Shown here: positions 202 to 48,325 of the stretch, piece by piece
Numbering within the stretch: the first letter of the stretch is position 1
Layout: each line of letters begins with the position of its first letter
Origin: a virus
Taxonomy: Duplodnaviria > Caudoviricetes
IMG/VR virus record: IMGVR_UViG_2974767555_000001
Location: 1-64,000 of that record
Length of the DNA stretch: 64,000 nucleotides
Direction: 5' to 3' (one strand)
Program-made: the position numbers and the translations under genes
Notes under the pieces: generated by a model
Database searches by the model: none
What the model saw: the letters and a program-made list of their open reading frames with translations, nothing else
Told to the model about the DNA's origin: nothing

Positions 202-861
202 ATGTCCGAATCGACTGATGCACCAACTGATGCCGTGGGCACCCTGATGGGTGAACCGGGGAAGCTGAAGGTCGCCGACCTGCACACGTTCCTGGGTAAC
301 CCCCGGCGCGGCAATATCGCCCGGATCGCGGAGTCTCTGGCGGTCAACGGGATGTACAAGCCGGTGGTGGTCAACAAGGGCACCCACACGGGTCGCCCGA
401 ACGAGGTGTTGGCCGGTAACCACACCCTGATGGCCGCAAGGGAATTGGGCTGGTCGGAGGTCAACGCCTGGGTCATCGACGTGGACGAGCACCAGGCCAA
501 GAAGATCGTCGCCGCCGACAACAGGACCGCTGACCTGGGCGAATACGACAACGACGCCATGATCGAGCTGCTGGGTTCGCTCGATGACCTGGAGGGCACC
601 GGGTATGACGCCGATGATCTGTCGGCGCTCCAGGACCTGGAGAACGACGGGTTGTGGGACAACGAAAACCCCTATGACGGGGGTGGTTCCGACCCTGGCG
701 ACCACTCTGACCAGGACAATCACAAGTTCTTCCCCAAGATCGACCTGCGCATCCCGCCGATGATGATGGACGCCTGGCGGGAGCTGCTCGACCGGTACAG
801 CGGCGAGGACGACGTGGACAAGCTGGAGGCCCACCTCAAGGCTCAGGGGGTGCTCCAGTGA
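202..861 (+). CDS. ParB/Srx-like N-terminal domain protein
   Basis: NPRRGN...GMYKPVVV...VLAGNHTLMAARELG...ADNR ParB-N motifs; AAGGAG RBS at 188-193. Confidence 0.85.
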   Translation: MSESTDAPTDAVGTLMGEPGKLKVADLHTFLGNPRRGNIARIAESLAVNGMYKPVVVNKGTHTGRPNEVLAGNHTLMAARELGWSEVNAWVIDVDEHQAKKIVAADNRTADLGEYDNDAMIELLGSLDDLEGTGYDADDLSALQDLENDGLWDNENPYDGGGSDPGDHSDQDNHKFFPKIDLRIPPMMMDAWRELLDRYSGEDDVDKLEAHLKAQGVLQ

Positions 862-995
862 CCTACACCCGCGCGGAACTGATGGCCCAGGCGCGCCGTC
901 ACGGTCACGGGTTCCGGTCGGGCGCTGTGGTGGCGGGATCGTTTGCTGCAGCGGTGATCCTGGTCGCGGCGGTCATCGTGGTGTCGGTGCTGTGA
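858..995 (+). CDS. Small single-pass membrane protein (45 aa)
   Basis: Read by hand: GTG 858 overlaps upstream TGA, TGA 993-995 overlaps next GTG; hydrophobic C-terminus AVVAGSFAAAVILVAAVIVVSVL. Confidence 0.6.
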   Translation: MTYTRAELMAQARRHGHGFRSGAVVAGSFAAAVILVAAVIVVSVL

Positions 996-2050
996 CCAGC
1001 TTCGATTCACCAGTGCCCGTCTATCCGGAGACCGGCAGGCGCGTGCTGCCAATGAATTTGCTGTGGTCGTACGTGTATGCGCGGAGTTTGGACCTGCGCA
1101 AGTTCCTCAACGGGCTTGCCGCAGACCCGATCCGGTTTTTCGCTGACTCCGGTGCTCACAGCGCGCGCACGCTGGGCGTCCACATCGACGTGCACGAATA
1201 CGCCGAATGGCTGTGCCAGCACAAGGACCTGTGCACGATCTACGCCAACCTCGACGTGATCGGCGCGCCCGACGCCACCCGGGCCAACCAGGACATCCTG
1301 GAATCGTATGGGCTGGACCCGATGCCGGTGTTCCACACGGGCGAGCCGTTCAGCGTCCTCGAGGACTACATCAAGGACGGGTACACCTACATCGCCCTCG
1401 GAAAGCTGCTCGGCAACAGCCAGAAGGACCTGACACCGTGGATCGCACGGTGTTTCGAGGTGGCCCAGGACCGTGCAGTGTTCCACGGCTTCGGTATGAC
1501 CGTGTGGGCGCAGATCAAGCGGTGGCCCTGGTACTCGGTCGATTCCAGCTCGTGGGTGGCCGGGGTGCGCTACGGCAGCGTCCGGTTGTTCGACAACGGG
1601 AAGTGGAAGGTCATCCAGCTCCGCGACCGGCAGGGGGTGCGGGACAACCTGGGCCTGCTCCGGTCGTACGGGCTGACCCCGCGCATGTTGACCAAGGAGG
1701 GGTACGACCGGCTGGCTGTGGCAGGGGCGTGCGCGGTCGCCCAGTACCGGGCCAGCGATTGGGTGTCGCAGAGGACCGGCACGGTCGTTCTGCCCCCCGG
1801 CAAGGGGTATCCGGCACCCGATTCCCACGCTGCAGACAAGATCATCAGGATTCAGGACGGTCAGCCGACCCTGACGACCGATCCCCACCGGTCGCACAGC
1901 GAGGGGCTGCATCAGTACCTGGCCAACACGGCATCGACCAACCACGGTTGGCACGCCGCTGGTCTGCAGCTGTACATCGCCGACAGCTCCACCACGTGGA
2001 CGCCCGCTGCGGCAGTCGGTATCGCCAAGGAGAACGGTCAGGATGTCTGA
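992..2050 (+). CDS. TGT-fold DNA guanine transglycosylase-like protein (DpdA-like)
   Basis: DSGAHS, NLDVIG, PVFH, HGFG, SVDSSSW motifs of TGT-like barrels; adjacent to queD/queE/folE. Confidence 0.78.
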   Translation: MTSFDSPVPVYPETGRRVLPMNLLWSYVYARSLDLRKFLNGLAADPIRFFADSGAHSARTLGVHIDVHEYAEWLCQHKDLCTIYANLDVIGAPDATRANQDILESYGLDPMPVFHTGEPFSVLEDYIKDGYTYIALGKLLGNSQKDLTPWIARCFEVAQDRAVFHGFGMTVWAQIKRWPWYSVDSSSWVAGVRYGSVRLFDNGKWKVIQLRDRQGVRDNLGLLRSYGLTPRMLTKEGYDRLAVAGACAVAQYRASDWVSQRTGTVVLPPGKGYPAPDSHAADKIIRIQDGQPTLTTDPHRSHSEGLHQYLANTASTNHGWHAAGLQLYIADSSTTWTPAAAVGIAKENGQDV

Positions 2051-2468
2051 GCACCGCATGACAATCACGATTGGCCCGCTGACCTGCGTGTTCGGCAACC
2101 ACAACAAGGCGATGGGTCTGAAGCTGCATTTCCACACTGCGGCGGTGTTTTTGGAGTATTCGGTCCCCGTTTCGGGGGTGCAGACCGCGAAACACTGGGG
2201 TGGCCACGGGTTTCCCAGCTTTGAGGCCACCAACGACGCCCTGCGTGACCGGGTGCGTGAGCTGACCGCCGCCCCGTTCGAGGACGCGACCAACGAGGAC
2301 GTGGCGTGGCGACTGTTCCAGGCCCTGAAGGGATTCCGTCACGGGTCGTGGGACCGCTACGGCGGCGACTACCGGCTGATCGGTCTGGACCTCGACGTGG
2401 TGGGGGTGCCCGACAGCATCGGCCACGACGACGGCACAACGCGATACACGATCAAGGAGACCAGCTGA
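2043..2468 (+). CDS. QueD-like T-fold paralogue lacking the catalytic Cys (possible DpdL-like CDG-modifying enzyme)
   Basis: FGNH...LHFHT aligns with QueD FSAGH...CTNVHGHT; TNEDVA aligns with QueD PTTEAIA. Confidence 0.6.
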   Translation: MSEHRMTITIGPLTCVFGNHNKAMGLKLHFHTAAVFLEYSVPVSGVQTAKHWGGHGFPSFEATNDALRDRVRELTAAPFEDATNEDVAWRLFQALKGFRHGSWDRYGGDYRLIGLDLDVVGVPDSIGHDDGTTRYTIKETS

Positions 2469-2938
2469 TGTACGGAAACCTGACCGCCACGGTGCGGCAC
2501 CACTTCTCTGCCGGTCATCGCATCCCCGGATTGCCTGGTGCAGGGGAGAAATGCACCAATGTCCACGGTCACACGTTCGGTGTGTCGTGGACGGTGGGGG
2601 TGCCATCGCTGGACGCCACGGTGGTGGAGTTTGGTGAGCTGAAGCGCGCCTTCCGGGGCTGGATCGATCAGCGCCTGGACCACGGGTTCATCGTCGGCAA
2701 GGACGACCTGGAGATGCTGGGTGTGCTGAAGCTGATGGGCAGCAAGCACTTCGTGACCGATAACCCGCCGACGACCGAGGCCATCGCCTCTGTGATCGCC
2801 CAGGCCAGCCAGGACCTGCTGTCTGGTGTCGTCCTGCTGTCGGTGGAGGTGACCGAGGGGCCGCACAACGCTGCCACGTGGCACAACCCGGCCAAGGTGT
2901 GGTCAGCCCAGGAGCTGGAAGGGATGGCGGGCTTCTGA
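2468..2938 (+). CDS. queD: 6-carboxy-5,6,7,8-tetrahydropterin synthase
   Basis: FSAGH, CTNVHGHT, LDHGF, PTTE motifs; ATG 2468 in TGATG overlap. Confidence 0.92.
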   Translation: MYGNLTATVRHHFSAGHRIPGLPGAGEKCTNVHGHTFGVSWTVGVPSLDATVVEFGELKRAFRGWIDQRLDHGFIVGKDDLEMLGVLKLMGSKHFVTDNPPTTEAIASVIAQASQDLLSGVVLLSVEVTEGPHNAATWHNPAKVWSAQELEGMAGF

Positions 2939-3657
2939 TGACCGACGACGCAATGGTGTTGCCGGTCAGCGAGGTGTTCGGCCCGACGATCCAGGGAGAG
3001 GGGCCGCACCAGGGGCGCGCGGTCCAGTTCGTCCGGTTGGGTGGCTGCAATCTGTCGTGCGACTGGTGCGACACCCCGTACACCTGGGACGGCAGCCGGT
3101 TCAACCTGCGGGAAGAGAACCCGCTGACGACGGTGGCCGACGTTCTGGCACGGGTGATTCCGTGGCTGACGGTGGTCATCTCTGGCGGGGAACCGCTGAT
3201 CCACCAGGCGAAACCGGCGTGGCAGGAGCTGCTGCACGGTCTGCACCAACAGAATTGCCGCATCCACGTCGAAACCAACGGGACGATCAACCCCAACGAC
3301 GTGACCCGGCGCTACGTCGAGCACTACTCGGTGTCGCCCAAGCTGCCGCACGCCGGGTCGCACAAGCGATCCCAGAACCCCGCGCTGGCCATCGGGTGGC
3401 GGCGCGGTAAGTGGCCGGTCGGCGTCGGGCGCGCGCTGAAGGTCGTGGTGCGCGACGGGGCCGATGTGTCGGCGGCGTTCGACCTGGCCGACGCCAACGC
3501 ATGGCCGCTTGACGAGGTGTGGGTGATGCCCGAGGGCACCACCACCGAGCAGCTGCAGGCCCGGTGGCCCGAGGTCGCCGAGACGGCTGCCCACTACGGC
3601 ATCAACGCATCTCATCGACTCCACGTCCTGGCGTGGGGGGATCGGAAGGGCACATGA
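2938..3657 (+). CDS. queE: 7-carboxy-7-deazaguanine synthase (radical SAM)
   Basis: EVFGPTIQGEG, GCNLSCDWCDT (CxxxCxxC), SGGEP, ETNGT, SPKL, RLHV motifs; TGATG start. Confidence 0.94.
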   Translation: MTDDAMVLPVSEVFGPTIQGEGPHQGRAVQFVRLGGCNLSCDWCDTPYTWDGSRFNLREENPLTTVADVLARVIPWLTVVISGGEPLIHQAKPAWQELLHGLHQQNCRIHVETNGTINPNDVTRRYVEHYSVSPKLPHAGSHKRSQNPALAIGWRRGKWPVGVGRALKVVVRDGADVSAAFDLADANAWPLDEVWVMPEGTTTEQLQARWPEVAETAAHYGINASHRLHVLAWGDRKGT

Positions 3658-4286
3658 CCGCGACCAACGGCCACGTCAAGACCTGGGGTGGGGACGAGCT
3701 GCCCCCGGTGCCCGTGGTGACCCCCGAGGCGCGCGCTGCCGACGCTGTGCAGCAACTGTTGGACGCGCTGGGGGTAGACGAGGGGGACCACACCGCACGG
3801 ACCCCGCAGCGGGTCGCCAAGGCGTGGAGGGAGATGCTGGCCGGGTACCGCGAGGACCCCGCCGATCACCTGGAGACGACGTTCTCGGCCCCCGGCAACC
3901 CGGGCCTGGTCATCGTGGACCGGATCGAGCTGCAGTCAACGTGTGCCCACCACATGCTCCCGTTCACCGGTCGTGCCACCGTGGCGTACCGGCCTGCCAA
4001 CGGTCAGTCCATCGTCGGGTTGTCCAAGATGGCGCGACTGGTGAACGGGTTCAGCCGACGCCTGCAGGTACAGGAGCGCATCGGTGCCCAGGTCGTGGAC
4101 GCGATCATGGAGCGGCTAAAGCCCGAGGGGGCAATGTGTCTGATCACCGCCAGCCACGACTGCATGAGGCTGCGCGGGGTGCGGGAGCCGGAAGCGGAGA
4201 CCACCACCGAGGCCCGCCGTGGTCTGCTGCTTGACCACGAGATCAGCCTGATTCACCTGCGGCACCTGGGGTCTGCCGCGCGATGA
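3654..4286 (+). CDS. folE: GTP cyclohydrolase I
   Basis: TPQRVAK, STCAHHMLPF, GLSKMAR, RLQVQER, HDCMRLRGV motifs; ATGA overlap at 3654. Confidence 0.95.
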   Translation: MTATNGHVKTWGGDELPPVPVVTPEARAADAVQQLLDALGVDEGDHTARTPQRVAKAWREMLAGYREDPADHLETTFSAPGNPGLVIVDRIELQSTCAHHMLPFTGRATVAYRPANGQSIVGLSKMARLVNGFSRRLQVQERIGAQVVDAIMERLKPEGAMCLITASHDCMRLRGVREPEAETTTEARRGLLLDHEISLIHLRHLGSAAR

Positions 4287-4711
4287 ACCGTGTGGAGCGC
4301 GCGCGGCGCGATGCAAAGGTGTTGCGGCTCCACATCGCTGGTGCCACGTACCGGCAGATCGCTGAGGCGTGCGACATCAGCGTCGGCATGGCCGACAAGA
4401 TCGTGAAGCGGGAGCTGGCCAAAGCCGCGGCGAGGCGAGACCTGTTGGGCGACCAGGCTTTAGCCATGTTCCTGGAGCGGTCGGAGTCACTGTTCAAGGC
4501 CAACTACCCCAAGGCCATGAAGGGTGACTACAAGGCAGCGGTGATCTGTGACCGCATCATGGCAAGGCAGGCCCGTCTGTTCGGTGTAGTCGATGGCCAC
4601 GGTATCGGCGGTGCTGGGAACGAGGACCCGGAACCGCCCGATACCGAGGATGACCCCGAGGATGACGGTGACGATGAGCTTGCCAAGTGGCGTAGTCGCC
4701 GACGAGCTTAA
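4283..4711 (+). CDS. Terminase small subunit (N-terminal HTH)
   Basis: GATYRQIAEACDIS HTH, acidic tail ending DDELAKWRSRR, directly upstream of terL. Confidence 0.7.
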   Translation: MNRVERARRDAKVLRLHIAGATYRQIAEACDISVGMADKIVKRELAKAAARRDLLGDQALAMFLERSESLFKANYPKAMKGDYKAAVICDRIMARQARLFGVVDGHGIGGAGNEDPEPPDTEDDPEDDGDDELAKWRSRRRA

Positions 4712-6299
4712 GGGCCACACCAAACCACGTCAGTACACCCCACCTCTGGCGGTCAACTGCAACATCCTGATCAACCCGGATGTTGGGTGCCCGTGTGGAT
4801 GTGGGCTACACCCCGAAACCTCTTGGGGCTTCGACTGTATCGACTTCTTGACCGAGGTCATGAAGTGGGAGTTGCTGCCCTACCAGAAGTGGCTGTACAT
4901 CCACGCGCTGGAGAAAGGCCCAGGGGGCGAGGGCTTTCGGTTCAAAACGCTGGTCATCCTGATCGCGCGCCAGAACGGAAAGACCCAGTGGCTGCGGGGT
5001 CTGGGGCTGTGGCGGTTGTACCTCGACAACCGTGGCCGCATCACCCCGGACTGCCCCGCTGCCAAGACGGTTGTCATTGCCGCCCAGGGCCTGGAGTACG
5101 CCGAGTCCACGTTGGGTGAGGTGGTCAACGAGGTCAAGGAATGCCCGCCGCTGAAGCGGGAGTTCCTGCGTCACCGGCAGACCAACGGCAAGCACGCCAT
5201 GCTGTTGACGGGGCGGCGCGCGTGGCGCGCGGTCGCCGCCAACCGTAAGGGTGGCCGGTCGATGTCGGTCGATCTGGTGGAGCTTGACGAGCTACGTGAG
5301 CACACCGACTGGCTGGCCTGGAACGCCATCACGCCGACGACCCAGGCCCGCAAGTACAGCCAGATCGTGTGCGCGTCCAACGCTGGCGACATCCGGTCGG
5401 TGGTGCTGCGGTCACTGCGCGACGGCGCGCTGGCCAAGATTCAGGCCCGCGACACCGCCGACACCAAGACCGGGTTGTTCGAATGGTCGGCCCCGCAAGA
5501 GGTTGACCCGCTGGACCGCAGGTACTGGCCGATGGCCAACCCGGCGCTGGGGTACCTGCCCGGTAACGACGCAGACGCCTTGGCTGCCAAGGCTGAAGCG
5601 ATGGCCGACAACATGGCCGGTTTCGTGACCGAGTACCTGTGCCAGTGGGTGGACACCCTGCTCCCCGGCATCATGCCGATGGAGGACTGGATTGCCACGA
5701 CCGACCCCGAGTCCCGCCGCGCGGAGGGGGCACCCGTGTATGCCGCCGTCGATGTGAACCACCAGAGGACCAAGGCGTACATCGCCATCGCATCGCGGCG
5801 CGCTGACGGTCTGCTGCACGTCGAAGTCGTTGCGGCAGCGCGTGGTCTGGACTGGGTGGTCAAGTGGTTCCAGGAGCGTCAGGGCAAGTTCGTCGCCGTG
5901 GCGGTCCAGGCGCGGGGTTGCCCCGCAAGCGATCTGATCGAGCCGCTGACCAAGGCCGGGGTGCCGGTCATGGAGTTGGGTGGGTCGGAGCTGACGCGCG
6001 GTGCTGGTGGCGTCCTGTTTGACGGGATCCGCAAGCACGCGATTTGGCATCGCCCGCAAGGGGTTCTGGACACTGCCGCCAAGGGCACGGTGTCGCGGAC
6101 CTTGGGTGGTGACACGTGGGTGCTCGACCGTAAGAACTCCCCGGTAGACGCCGCGCCCCTGGTGGCGTGCGCTGCTGCCGCCTGGGCCGAATCGCAAGGC
6201 CCGATGGTCCCGGACAAGGTGCCCGAGGTCCACGAATGGCCCGACGAGGAGGAAATCGCCCAATGGGAAAAGCAACTGGACGACCTGGAGGACCTGTGA
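4674..6299 (+). CDS. Terminase large subunit
   Basis: Walker A IARQNGKT, Walker B VELDELRE, SNAG, nuclease AAVDV...DAAPL; start placed at ATG 4674. Confidence 0.93.
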   Translation: MSLPSGVVADELKGHTKPRQYTPPLAVNCNILINPDVGCPCGCGLHPETSWGFDCIDFLTEVMKWELLPYQKWLYIHALEKGPGGEGFRFKTLVILIARQNGKTQWLRGLGLWRLYLDNRGRITPDCPAAKTVVIAAQGLEYAESTLGEVVNEVKECPPLKREFLRHRQTNGKHAMLLTGRRAWRAVAANRKGGRSMSVDLVELDELREHTDWLAWNAITPTTQARKYSQIVCASNAGDIRSVVLRSLRDGALAKIQARDTADTKTGLFEWSAPQEVDPLDRRYWPMANPALGYLPGNDADALAAKAEAMADNMAGFVTEYLCQWVDTLLPGIMPMEDWIATTDPESRRAEGAPVYAAVDVNHQRTKAYIAIASRRADGLLHVEVVAAARGLDWVVKWFQERQGKFVAVAVQARGCPASDLIEPLTKAGVPVMELGGSELTRGAGGVLFDGIRKHAIWHRPQGVLDTAAKGTVSRTLGGDTWVLDRKNSPVDAAPLVACAAAAWAESQGPMVPDKVPEVHEWPDEEEIAQWEKQLDDLEDL

Positions 6300-46461: not shown

Positions 46462-47585
46462 CCGAGCAGATGACGGACATTGAGGTGGTCGATCCGACCA
46501 GCCAGGAGGTGGCCCAGAACACCGAGGTGTACACGGCCCCGACAACCCCTGCGCTGCAGCGGATGGCCGCAGAAGCGCAGGCGCTGGACACGGCGTTCAA
46601 GATGGCCCAGTCGCTGTCGAAGACCAACGCGGTGCCCCAGCGGTACCAGCAGAGCTTTGTGCCCAGCGGTCAGCGGGAGCCGCAAGGTATCACTGCCGCA
46701 TACGATCTGGCCGCTGCGATCTTGTACGGCGCGGAGCTGGGCATGTCGGCGCTCCAGTCGGCACAGAACGTGTTCAGCGTCCACGGTCAGCCCGCCGTGT
46801 ACAGCAAGACGATGGTGGCCCAGGTGTTGCGGCACATCGACACCCAGGGGACCGGTGGTCCCAACGGTGACGGTGTGTGGGAGGTCAGCGCCACCAAGGA
46901 CAAGGTGGTGTGGGCCGGTCGTCGTGACGGCAAGACCGCCGCCGCCGAGTGGACCATCGCCCGCGCGGAGTCGGCGGGGTTCACCCGTAACCCGATGTAC
47001 GCCAAGATGCCGGTCGAGATGCTGCGCGCCAAGGCCCAGGCTGAGGTGTGCCGGATCCTTTGGCCCGACGTGCTGTTGGGTATGTCCAACAGTGTCGAGG
47101 AGCTGCAGCTCGCTGACGGCACCGTGGTGCAGCGGGTCACGTCGCAGCGTCCGACCAAGGCCAAGGGTGTCGCGGGTCTGCTGGCCAACGTGGCACCCGC
47201 TATCGAGCAGCACCCCGCCGAGCCTGGCCCTGCCGATCAGTCGGTCACCCAGGCCCCCATCCCGGAACAGGCCCCGATTCCCAACGGCGACAACGCCGTT
47301 GTGGTCGAGGACCCCGCGCCCGCCGCTGGTGAGGAAGCCCCAGCGGCGGGTGCGGAACCAGAGAAGCCCGCGCTGGTCAGCAAGCGGCAGCTGACCGAGG
47401 TAAAGCGCGCGTTGGCCAAGGAGTCTTACACCGACCCCAAGTCGGAGGAGACGTTGACCTACGTCAACCAGCTGGTCGGAGTCGAGATCACCGACCTTGC
47501 CGACCTGACGGAATCCAAAGCGGCTGAGCTGCTTTCGATCCTGTCGGAACCCATCAACACCGATGACAAGGAGAACAGCAAGTGA
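46458..47585 (+). CDS. RecT-like single-strand annealing protein
   Basis: AAILYGAELG, HGQPAVY, EWTIARA, MLRAKA; follows the exonuclease. Confidence 0.78.
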   Translation: MTEQMTDIEVVDPTSQEVAQNTEVYTAPTTPALQRMAAEAQALDTAFKMAQSLSKTNAVPQRYQQSFVPSGQREPQGITAAYDLAAAILYGAELGMSALQSAQNVFSVHGQPAVYSKTMVAQVLRHIDTQGTGGPNGDGVWEVSATKDKVVWAGRRDGKTAAAEWTIARAESAGFTRNPMYAKMPVEMLRAKAQAEVCRILWPDVLLGMSNSVEELQLADGTVVQRVTSQRPTKAKGVAGLLANVAPAIEQHPAEPGPADQSVTQAPIPEQAPIPNGDNAVVVEDPAPAAGEEAPAAGAEPEKPALVSKRQLTEVKRALAKESYTDPKSEETLTYVNQLVGVEITDLADLTESKAAELLSILSEPINTDDKENSK

Positions 47586-48325
47586 GCGAGACCAACACCA
47601 CCACGACCACCGATCCCGATTACCACGATGAGGCCATCATCGCCTTCCAGGGTCGGTCGGGATCGTTGGCCAACCCGCCGCAGTTGGGTGACTCTCGCCG
47701 GTACGTGATCGCGGGCAACTGCGTCAAGGTGTCGGAGGAGCTGCAGGACAACGGCGACATCAAGCAGGTCTGCACCATCAAGGCCCGCAACGTGTATGAG
47801 ATCGGGGTCCGTAACCCCGACGACGGTGCCGGGTTGTTCCGGGAACCGTGCCCCCACTGCGGTCACGCGGAGACCCCGGGTGATGTGGTCGATGGGTTCG
47901 TAGACGACGAGGACGGCAGCGACGAGCCTGCCGCGATTGCAGAAGCCCAGCTCGCCATTGCCGCAGCGCCCGACGACATCGTGGACGCCGAGGTGATCGA
48001 GGACGACGAGACCCCCGACGACGGCGATGACCCGACCGCTGGGGACGTGGAAGTCGTTGACGAGAACGAGGACTGGGAGGTCACCGACGTGCCCGAGACC
48101 GGGGACGACGACGACCCCGAACCCGACGAGGTGGCCCAGGACTACGAGCCAAGCGGCATGGACGAATTCGTCGCCCAGGCCGACGCGGAGACCGTGGAGG
48201 AACCCGCCGACCCGGAACCGGAGGAGACGCCGCAGCAGCGCCGTAACCGGCTCGCACGGGAACGCCGCGCCGCCAAGAAGGCCCAACAGGAGCAGGCCGA
48301 CGACGAGAGCGGCGACGACGAGTGA
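47582..48325 (+). CDS. Highly acidic hypothetical protein
   Basis: D/E-rich; TPQQRRNRLARERRAAK motif. Confidence 0.7.
   Translation: MSETNTTTTTDPDYHDEAIIAFQGRSGSLANPPQLGDSRRYVIAGNCVKVSEELQDNGDIKQVCTIKARNVYEIGVRNPDDGAGLFREPCPHCGHAETPGDVVDGFVDDEDGSDEPAAIAEAQLAIAAAPDDIVDAEVIEDDETPDDGDDPTAGDVEVVDENEDWEVTDVPETGDDDDPEPDEVAQDYEPSGMDEFVAQADAETVEEPADPEPEETPQQRRNRLARERRAAKKAQQEQADDESGDDE

Follow-up and report, generated by a model that had tools for sequence, protein, structure and literature searches.

An actinophage module predicted to modify DNA with 7-deazaguanines holds a T-fold protein of a nameless family in the place of QueC

Replacement of guanine by 7-deazaguanine bases, of which eight derivatives are known, is one of the main ways in which phages escape restriction. 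Which of these bases can a phage make if its own pathway contains no QueC? The question is raised by the virus record IMGVR_UViG_2974767555_000001, 75,687 bp long and rated 99% complete, the first 64,000 nt of which, from its left end, were analysed here and are referred to as the window. An operon at positions 202 to 4286 encodes FolE, QueD and QueE, members of families that have the established chemistry of converting GTP to 7-carboxy-7-deazaguanine (CDG), together with a DpdA-like transglycosylase, a ParB-like protein and a 141 aa protein, gp4, which occupies the slot held by QueC in other phages. Judged on its sequence, the module is most likely a pathway for modifying DNA with a 7-deazaguanine that is unable to make preQ0.

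All the genes of the run described in a first-pass annotation of the window (a ParB-like gene, a small open reading frame (ORF), a TGT/DpdA-like gene, a 141 aa ORF, queD, queE and folE) are present, on the + strand. QueD, the CPH4 synthase (2468-2938), matches Pfam PTPS (1.6e-20) and TIGR03367 (6e-16); its CxxxHGH motif reads CTNVHGH, the Asp-His dyad is found as LDH, and PTTE contains the T-fold Glu. QueE, the radical S-adenosylmethionine CDG synthase (2938-3657), matches phrog_2076 (7.1e-71), and QueE models take the first five places amongst its NCBIfam matches, headed by TIGR03365 (3.3e-29); the CxxxCxxC cluster motif is present as CNLSCDWC, along with QGEG. FolE, a GTP cyclohydrolase I (3654-4286), matches its Pfam family at 2.6e-55 and NF006826 at 192 bits, over the cut-off of that model, and contains the motifs CAHHMLPF and SHDC.

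The same annotation had seen no QueC, QueF, Gat-QueC or ArcS-like gene in the window, and this extends to the whole genome for QueC and QueF. A six-frame search of the full record with the QueC model PF06508, which was positive in 14 of 14 control genomes, gave no match at E<=10; nothing in the full genome exceeded the cut-off for QueF, the sole signal being a 12.7-bit cross-match inside FolE. The closest relative is Mycobacterium phage Nadezda, which has 96.9% identity to the first 6 kb of the window and the annotation of which lists no amidotransferase, ArcS or DNA polymerase; Bipper and Cracklewink have 80.9% identity, and all three phages were isolated on M. smegmatis mc2 155. QueC is also rare amongst potential hosts: at the level of the family, just five of 301 sampled genomes of the GTDB family containing Gordonia asplenii, which is presumed (rather than named by the tool) also to hold Mycobacterium, encoded it at E<=1e-10. 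This agrees both with the supposition that mycobacteria lack the queuosine pathway and with the report that the genes of the Q pathway are entirely missing from them (Hutinet et al. 2019, PMC6884629). Because QueC is absent from the phage and rare in the host family, whilst the motifs of QueD, QueE, FolE and DpdA are intact, CDG or a product derived from it is, as far as can be computed, the only base that the phage could supply, as had been proposed; the sequence does not decide which of these it is.

A step beyond CDG would depend on gp4 (2043-2468), which was assigned from its predicted structure and the synteny of its slot. It had no match in Pfam, PHROGs, NCBIfam or PADLOC, its profile found nothing meaningful amongst PDB sequences, and none of its 36 close homologues carries a Pfam domain. 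When 1.84 billion representatives were searched exhaustively with the gp4 profile, the family amounted to 85 clusters at 50% identity and did not extend to the large PTPS family; it is encoded by phages and prophages of Mycobacterium, Gordonia, Streptomyces, Nonomuraea, Lentzea and others. The AlphaFold model built from the gp4 alignment has a mean predicted local distance difference test score (pLDDT) of 90.5, a predicted template modelling (TM) score of 0.85 and secondary structure elements in the T-fold order, beta-beta-alpha-alpha-beta-beta. When it was compared with structures via an all-against-PDB search, T-fold enzymes filled all of the top 22 rows, led by the PTPS entries 2dj6 (Z score 10.3 over 101 residues, 2.7 A) and 2g64 (9.8), the QueD-type PTPS homologue 3qn0 (9.5) and QueD2 (7v0f; 9.2); QueF-L, DHNA, FolX and GTP cyclohydrolase I were also matched. 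Foldseek likewise returned T-folds, at weaker E-values, and in the protein Atlas gp4 lies near viral clusters, one of which is 13% PF01242. On this modelling, gp4 is confidently predicted to be a T-fold protein of its own, nameless family. Its earlier description as a QueD paralogue is therefore apt with regard to fold, but not to sequence, at which level no method links it to QueD.

Conservation amongst 104 members of the family reaches 90% or more at each of N21, H29, H31, G56, P58, F60, T83-N84-E85, D124, H128 and Y135; N21, H29, H31, E85, D124, H128 and Y135 are each found in at least 96 members, and H29, H31 and E85 in at least 100, whilst no Cys is conserved. The consensus of the family includes FGNVN, the His of FGNHN being confined to close relatives. 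The Cys and the LDH Asp-His dyad of QueD are both missing from gp4, but present in the neighbouring true QueD. Two other identities were considered for gp4 and rejected. It does not appear to be a remnant of QueC: the two differ in fold, gp4 has no PP-loop, and the BLASTP score of 19.6 bits against the QueC of Mycobacterium phage Rosebush carries no meaning; nor can it be counted amongst enzymes of the QueF or QueF-L type, which require a catalytic Cys.

To place gp4 in context, IMG/VR was searched with the gp4 alignment and with alignments of two DpdA subgroups, an alignment of all 14 DpdAs having no conserved stretch, which yielded about 70 loci. Two layouts were distinguished by tblastn, ParB-DpdA-gp4-QueD-QueE-FolE and ParB-DpdA-QueC-QueD-QueE-FolE, and no locus combined gp4 with QueC. 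Of 52 distinct DpdA sequences, 22 lie beside gp4, 26 beside QueC and four beside neither; the suggestion that the modification would be uncommon for an actinophage is hence doubtful, at least in sequence space. The order of genes is conserved amongst very divergent phages, with gp4 identity as low as 38%. None of the other ORF families in or around the module tracks the choice between gp4 and QueC, and no second gene travels with gp4 alone.

The partners of gp4 occupy at least three places in the DpdA tree: these include a 16-member clade to which the window belongs, and a group of three inside a well-supported clade of the QueC type. Constraining all gp4-associated DpdAs to a single clade was rejected (-118 log-likelihood units; approximately unbiased (AU) test, p 9e-59), the trees being quick IQ-TREE runs and the clade for the AU test having been chosen after the first tree was seen. 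To judge from this rejection and from the scattered positions in the tree, replacement between gp4 and QueC in the same slot has occurred more than once. Amongst the 12 virus records with gp4 whose completeness is rated at 90% or more, 11 lack QueC throughout. Modules with gp4 are also found in seven bacterial genomes, from Gordonia, Streptomyces, Nonomuraea, Kibdelosporangium, Lentzea and two Spongiactinospora; true QueC is present in three of these, with the remaining four having only partial matches of 22-25 bits, each in an open frame of >660 aa. The only complete phage found to have both is G003 (IMGVR_UViG_3300037470_000624; 59,446 bp, with terminal repeats), in which an intact module of ParB-like, DpdA-like, gp4, QueD, QueE and FolE genes and a true QueC (7.8e-60) are 37 kb apart (L011 8001-8393; L034 6688-7515). 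This phage may make two different deazaguanines, or the role of gp4 may be compatible with QueC.

Other arrangements of the slot were seen. In loci L041 and L044 it is empty, with DpdA (ending at about 7987) abutting QueD (starting at about 8000); their DpdAs sit in a QueC-type clade, and the complete 113.9 kb record of L044 has two adjacent QueC-like genes about 19 kb away. In some loci a tandem second DpdA-like ORF lies between DpdA and gp4 (117-1034 and 1031-1924 in L021/L069; 3451-4362 in L063; 5679-6986 in L068).

Insertion of the base into DNA would fall to the DpdA-like transglycosylase (1052-2050, or from an alternative GTG start at 992). No sequence in the whole genome matches the Pfam TGT model (PF01702) at E<=10, so DpdA falls outside that curated model, its profile found nothing meaningful amongst PDB sequences, and neither PADLOC nor NCBIfam gave a DpdA match; the assignment is made because of its match to phrog_887 ('queuine tRNA-ribosyltransferase', 5e-63), its homology to Rosebush gp2 (33% identity) and its fold. 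The AlphaFold2 model has a moderate pLDDT of 64.8, with a core of 70-89 and a poorly modelled C terminus (residues 261-332). Its best Foldseek match in the PDB is nonetheless the DNA preQ0 insertase DpdA (7ui4; E 9.7e-4), followed by dozens of TGT entries at TM scores of about 0.4-0.46, and the model has the TIM barrel expected of such enzymes. Three Asp residues, D32 (in DSGA), D68 (LDV) and D164 (SVDSS), do not vary amongst 14 divergent homologues, Rosebush gp2 included, and correspond by motif and order, rather than by superposition, to the published general acid/base, base-binding and nucleophile residues; in the DpdA of Salmonella Montevideo the active site Asp residues are Asp95, Asp130 and Asp256 (PMC10164549).

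Two columns of the DpdA alignment differ between groups, position 36 being His or Phe and position 120 Leu or Val. Numbered with the ATG at 1052 as the start, residue 36 (window 1157-1159) is a His (DSGAHS) in the clade of the window and Phe or Tyr in Rosebush-like DpdAs; it follows the first catalytic Asp at a distance of four positions, as does the base-stacking Phe99 of bacterial DpdA. As markers of an association with gp4 or QueC, both columns were discarded: they follow the phylogeny of DpdA, and the gp4-associated DpdAs of the Rosebush-like clade keep Phe/Tyr.

The ParB-like gp1 (202-861; 219 aa) matches phrog_723 (2.7e-59) and, narrowly, Pfam ParB_N (6e-06; 26.6 bits against a cut-off of 26.3), and is 48% identical to Rosebush gp1. 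Its nucleotide-binding box, read by eye, is AGNHTLMAA; DGQQR, the NTPase motif of DpdB, whose ATPase activity is required for the base to be inserted, is absent, and none of the PADLOC Dpd models matches it. A ParB-like gene lies upstream of DpdA in most of about 50 loci, of the QueC and gp4 types alike, a placement next to DpdA that parallels that of DpdB beside bacterial DpdA, and by analogy the two phage proteins may act jointly. The early gene region of Nadezda contains a further, shorter gene with the annotation 'ParB-like nuclease domain protein' (47568-48002; L089 38569-39003).

Possession of such genes need not result in modified DNA: phage Orion, which has DpdA as its only pathway gene, has unmodified DNA (PMC6884629). 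The module of the window could in principle be inactive, or could make a small molecule or divert the host GTP and folate pool, gp4 perhaps acting on a pterin, given that T-fold enzymes bind pterins as well as purines. We consider it very improbable that the virion DNA is unmodified for any of these reasons, however, as the catalytic motifs are intact in all five recognisable enzymes, the order of the six genes is conserved across very divergent phages and the near-identical layout of Rosebush yields heavily modified DNA (PMC6884629). Base exchange has been shown for Rosebush-type phages overall and for bacterial DpdA/DpdB, and by analogy the same would be expected of the phage in the window.

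What, then, might gp4 contribute? The answer that we tentatively favour, with a chance falling just short of even, is that dDG is made through decarboxylation of CDG by gp4 and inserted by DpdA. FolE, QueD and QueE would convert GTP to CDG; gp4, as a metal-type T-fold protein in the place of QueC, would bind CDG via the T-fold Glu and a metal/His site, and would most likely decarboxylate it to 7-deazaguanine, working like DpdL without belonging to that family. DpdA and the ParB-like protein, as a counterpart of DpdB, would then swap guanine in replicated duplex phage DNA for 7-deazaguanine, and the resulting dDG would shield the DNA from host nucleases. Insertion after replication agrees with the lack of an annotated DNA polymerase in the close relative Nadezda. 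Decarboxylation is preferred because it is the simplest reaction for a small T-fold protein without a nucleotide-binding motif, and because it has a precedent in dDG phages.

That precedent is DpdL, a QueD paralogue with the motif LxxxHRHxF, which has been proposed to decarboxylate CDG to 7-deazaguanine (Cui, Hutinet et al. 2023, PMC10516641). The phages encoding it have DpdA, FolE, QueD and QueE and lack QueC, and this T-fold paralogue was tied to dDG; in Cellulophaga phage phiST all G is replaced by dDG, and there is no dCDG (PMC10516641). Like DpdL, gp4 has a T-fold, retains the HxH and Glu, has lost both the catalytic Cys and the Asp-His of QueD, and is found with DpdA, FolE, QueD and QueE in the absence of QueC, with G003 as the one exception. 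The motif itself is different: all 15 homologues collected to build a profile with the phiST DpdL, taken from its record, have the HRH triplet with a Phe two residues beyond, whereas gp4 has G-L-K-L-H-F-H-T-A, and its family the consensus GLRxHxHTA, with Gly four residues before the first His, no Arg between the two His and no Phe two past the second. Weak profile alignments place the HxH of gp4 opposite HRH/HGH, and Glu85 opposite the substrate-anchoring T-fold Glu of QueD and DpdL, because of which gp4 and DpdL/QueD are probably very distant kin sharing the layout of a pocket. Given the failure of the motif and homology tests, gp4 appears not to be a member of DpdL, though it may work in a similar manner.

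A number of results weigh against decarboxylation by gp4. Profile comparison of gp4 and DpdL with hhalign gave a probability of 0.5% when 29 gp4 sequences were used, and of 13.7% (E 0.002) when there were 104; for gp4 and actinophage QueD the values were 0.6% and 2.2% respectively, compared to 56% (E 1e-4) for the positive control of DpdL with QueD. Searches with hidden Markov models (HMMs) were likewise negative, for gp4 in the genomes of phiST and ACP17 and for DpdL in the present genome. The first metal-binding His of QueD is an Asn in the gp4 family, such that a QueD-like zinc site is not assured. No DpdA residue tracks the choice between gp4 and QueC over the independent swaps, and G003 sits awkwardly with a strict alternation of the two. 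The precedent is itself incomplete, as co-expression of DpdL and DpdA in E. coli produced no dDG, leaving the activity of DpdL unproven (PMC10516641).

A simpler arrangement would be for DpdA to insert CDG itself, giving dCDG, with gp4 as a non-converting accessory that carries CDG to DpdA or helps QueD or QueE. CDG is the last product of the encoded enzymes of known activity, and was the base proposed for Bipper (Hutinet et al. 2019, PMC6884629); dCDG is present in the virus STSV-2, and in a queC mutant of E. coli, CDG was inefficiently incorporated into DNA by a phage DpdA2 (PMC10516641). The start of gp4 also overlaps the end of dpdA by 8 nt, both in the window and in many other loci, as might suit a protein working alongside DpdA. 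However, the near-invariant polar residues of gp4 (HxH, TNE, D124 and H128) resemble an active site rather than the surface of a carrier, and its repeated exchange with QueC at one and the same position points to an alternative tailoring step. The sole DpdA tested inserted CDG around 40-fold less well than its preferred base, and phiST, with a comparable gene set, contains dDG to the exclusion of dCDG (PMC10516641). Direct insertion of CDG hence appears rather unlikely, if still a serious competitor to decarboxylation.

If gp4 is an enzyme, it could alternatively make an undescribed 7-deazaguanine derivative, or act as a non-homologous substitute for QueC leading to dADG or dPreQ0. In sequence, its family stands apart from all characterised T-fold enzymes; the DpdAs partnered by gp4 and by QueC can be close relatives without a distinguishing pocket residue, as if the bases that they handle were similar; and G003 keeps both genes. 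Yet conversion of a carboxylate to an amide or nitrile needs activation by ATP, as with the PP-loop of QueC, whilst gp4 lacks a nucleotide-binding motif, and no extra tailoring gene accompanies it. We regard this alternative as doubtful, and give an equally low weight to its corollary, that gp4 founds a new family of T-fold enzymes with an unexpected product, be it a novel derivative or one reached from CDG by an ATP-independent route to the amide or nitrile. Decarboxylation to 7-deazaguanine remains the reading that we prefer.

The operon was originally described as translationally coupled. Start and stop codons do overlap by 1-8 nt at every junction but the one before dpdA; there, the aligned N termini of homologues point to the ATG at 1052 as the start, rather than the GTG at 992, which leaves a gap of 56 nt. 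Upstream of this gap is a 45 aa ORF with a hydrophobic C-terminal half (858-995), without a family match and annotated as 'hypothetical' in Nadezda and Bipper. It was seen between parB and dpdA only in the group of Bipper and Nadezda, ParB directly adjoining DpdA in more distant loci; it may lie outside the pathway.

Downstream of folE, the gene at 4283-4711 (+) is labelled 'RNase E' (phrog_645) in relatives, but its product has an N-terminal helix-turn-helix (HTH_23, similar to sigma-70 region 4) and is encoded directly upstream of the large terminase, a position that homologues share in 16 loci; a small terminase subunit is the more probable identity than RNase E. The start of the large terminase gene (4593/4890-6299, +) is uncertain: the longest ORF, from 4593, overlaps the preceding gene by 119 nt, whilst the annotated start in Nadezda is further downstream, at position 4890 of that genome.

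The QueC-less state of such a module and the suggestion of CDG for Bipper were already known (2019, PMC6884629), as was the idea of DpdL (2023, PMC10516641). What appears to be new is that gp4 is a predicted T-fold protein of its own family, the one component of a conserved six-gene module to be swapped with QueC, and that this exchange has recurred in phages and prophages of many actinobacterial genera; no description of the family was found in the full-text literature on Bipper, its relatives and the decarboxylation of CDG. Should gp4 decarboxylate CDG, a reaction proposed but unproven for DpdL would be carried out by a second family, either unconnected to DpdL or related to it only very remotely, and in a host with easy genetics. 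Should it not, a new base or new enzyme chemistry would be likely, and an unexpected base or route would represent a second widespread branch of deazaguanine tailoring in actinophages and prophages. Phages with the gp4 module are cultured on M. smegmatis, which makes no deazaguanines, hence these possibilities are readily testable. For mycobacteriophages, which serve in therapy and diagnostics, modified DNA also has practical consequences for cloning, restriction mapping, nanopore base-calling and engineering.

The closest parallel of known chemistry is Rosebush (cluster B2), in which dPreQ0 was found on 28% of G (Hutinet et al. 2019, PMC6884629). It has the same order of ParB-like, DpdA, slot gene, QueD, QueE and FolE followed by the terminase, at the same left end of the genome and in the same host species, with identities to the window of 48% for ParB, 33% for DpdA, 54% for QueD, 51% for QueE and 65% for FolE. 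The two differ in that the Rosebush slot contains a 235 aa PP-loop QueC, rather than the unrelated 141 aa T-fold gp4, and in that the modified base of Rosebush DNA was measured, whilst that of the phage of the window is a prediction. Bipper, as an 81%-identical relative, has the same operon; its lack of QueC appeared in print with the suggestion of CDG as its base, but the main text of that study gives no role to its gp4, and Bipper DNA was not amongst those measured there (Hutinet et al. 2019, PMC6884629).

With the bacterial DpdA/DpdB of S. Montevideo (Gedara et al. 2023, PMC10164549; PDB 7ui4), the module shares a TGT-fold transglycosylase and a partner of the ParB superfamily, as well as the three conserved Asp residues, 7ui4 being the top structural match of the phage DpdA model. 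In contrast to the bacterial system, the phage ParB-like protein is short, at 219 aa, and lacks DGQQR; DpdC and the restriction genes are absent; the phage DpdA has no Pfam TGT match; and the position of the base-stacking Phe99 is His in the clade of the window. The dDG system of phiST resembles the present one in lacking QueC and in having an extra T-fold protein with the HxH and T-fold Glu but without the Cys of QueD. gp4 is, however, longer than its counterpart, having a G-x-HG-[YF]-PSF insert and an IGHD loop, and it has no significant similarity to DpdL in profile or HMM comparisons, DpdL itself being reported to match PF01242 at 99.89% HHpred probability (PMC10516641). Whilst the gene set of phiST consists of FolE, QueD, QueE, DpdL and DpdA3, the last being a distant TGT homologue (98.83% HHpred probability to PF01702; PMC10516641), the gp4 module has a transglycosylase of the Rosebush kind with a ParB-like partner, and the hosts are Bacteroidota in the one case and Actinomycetota in the other.

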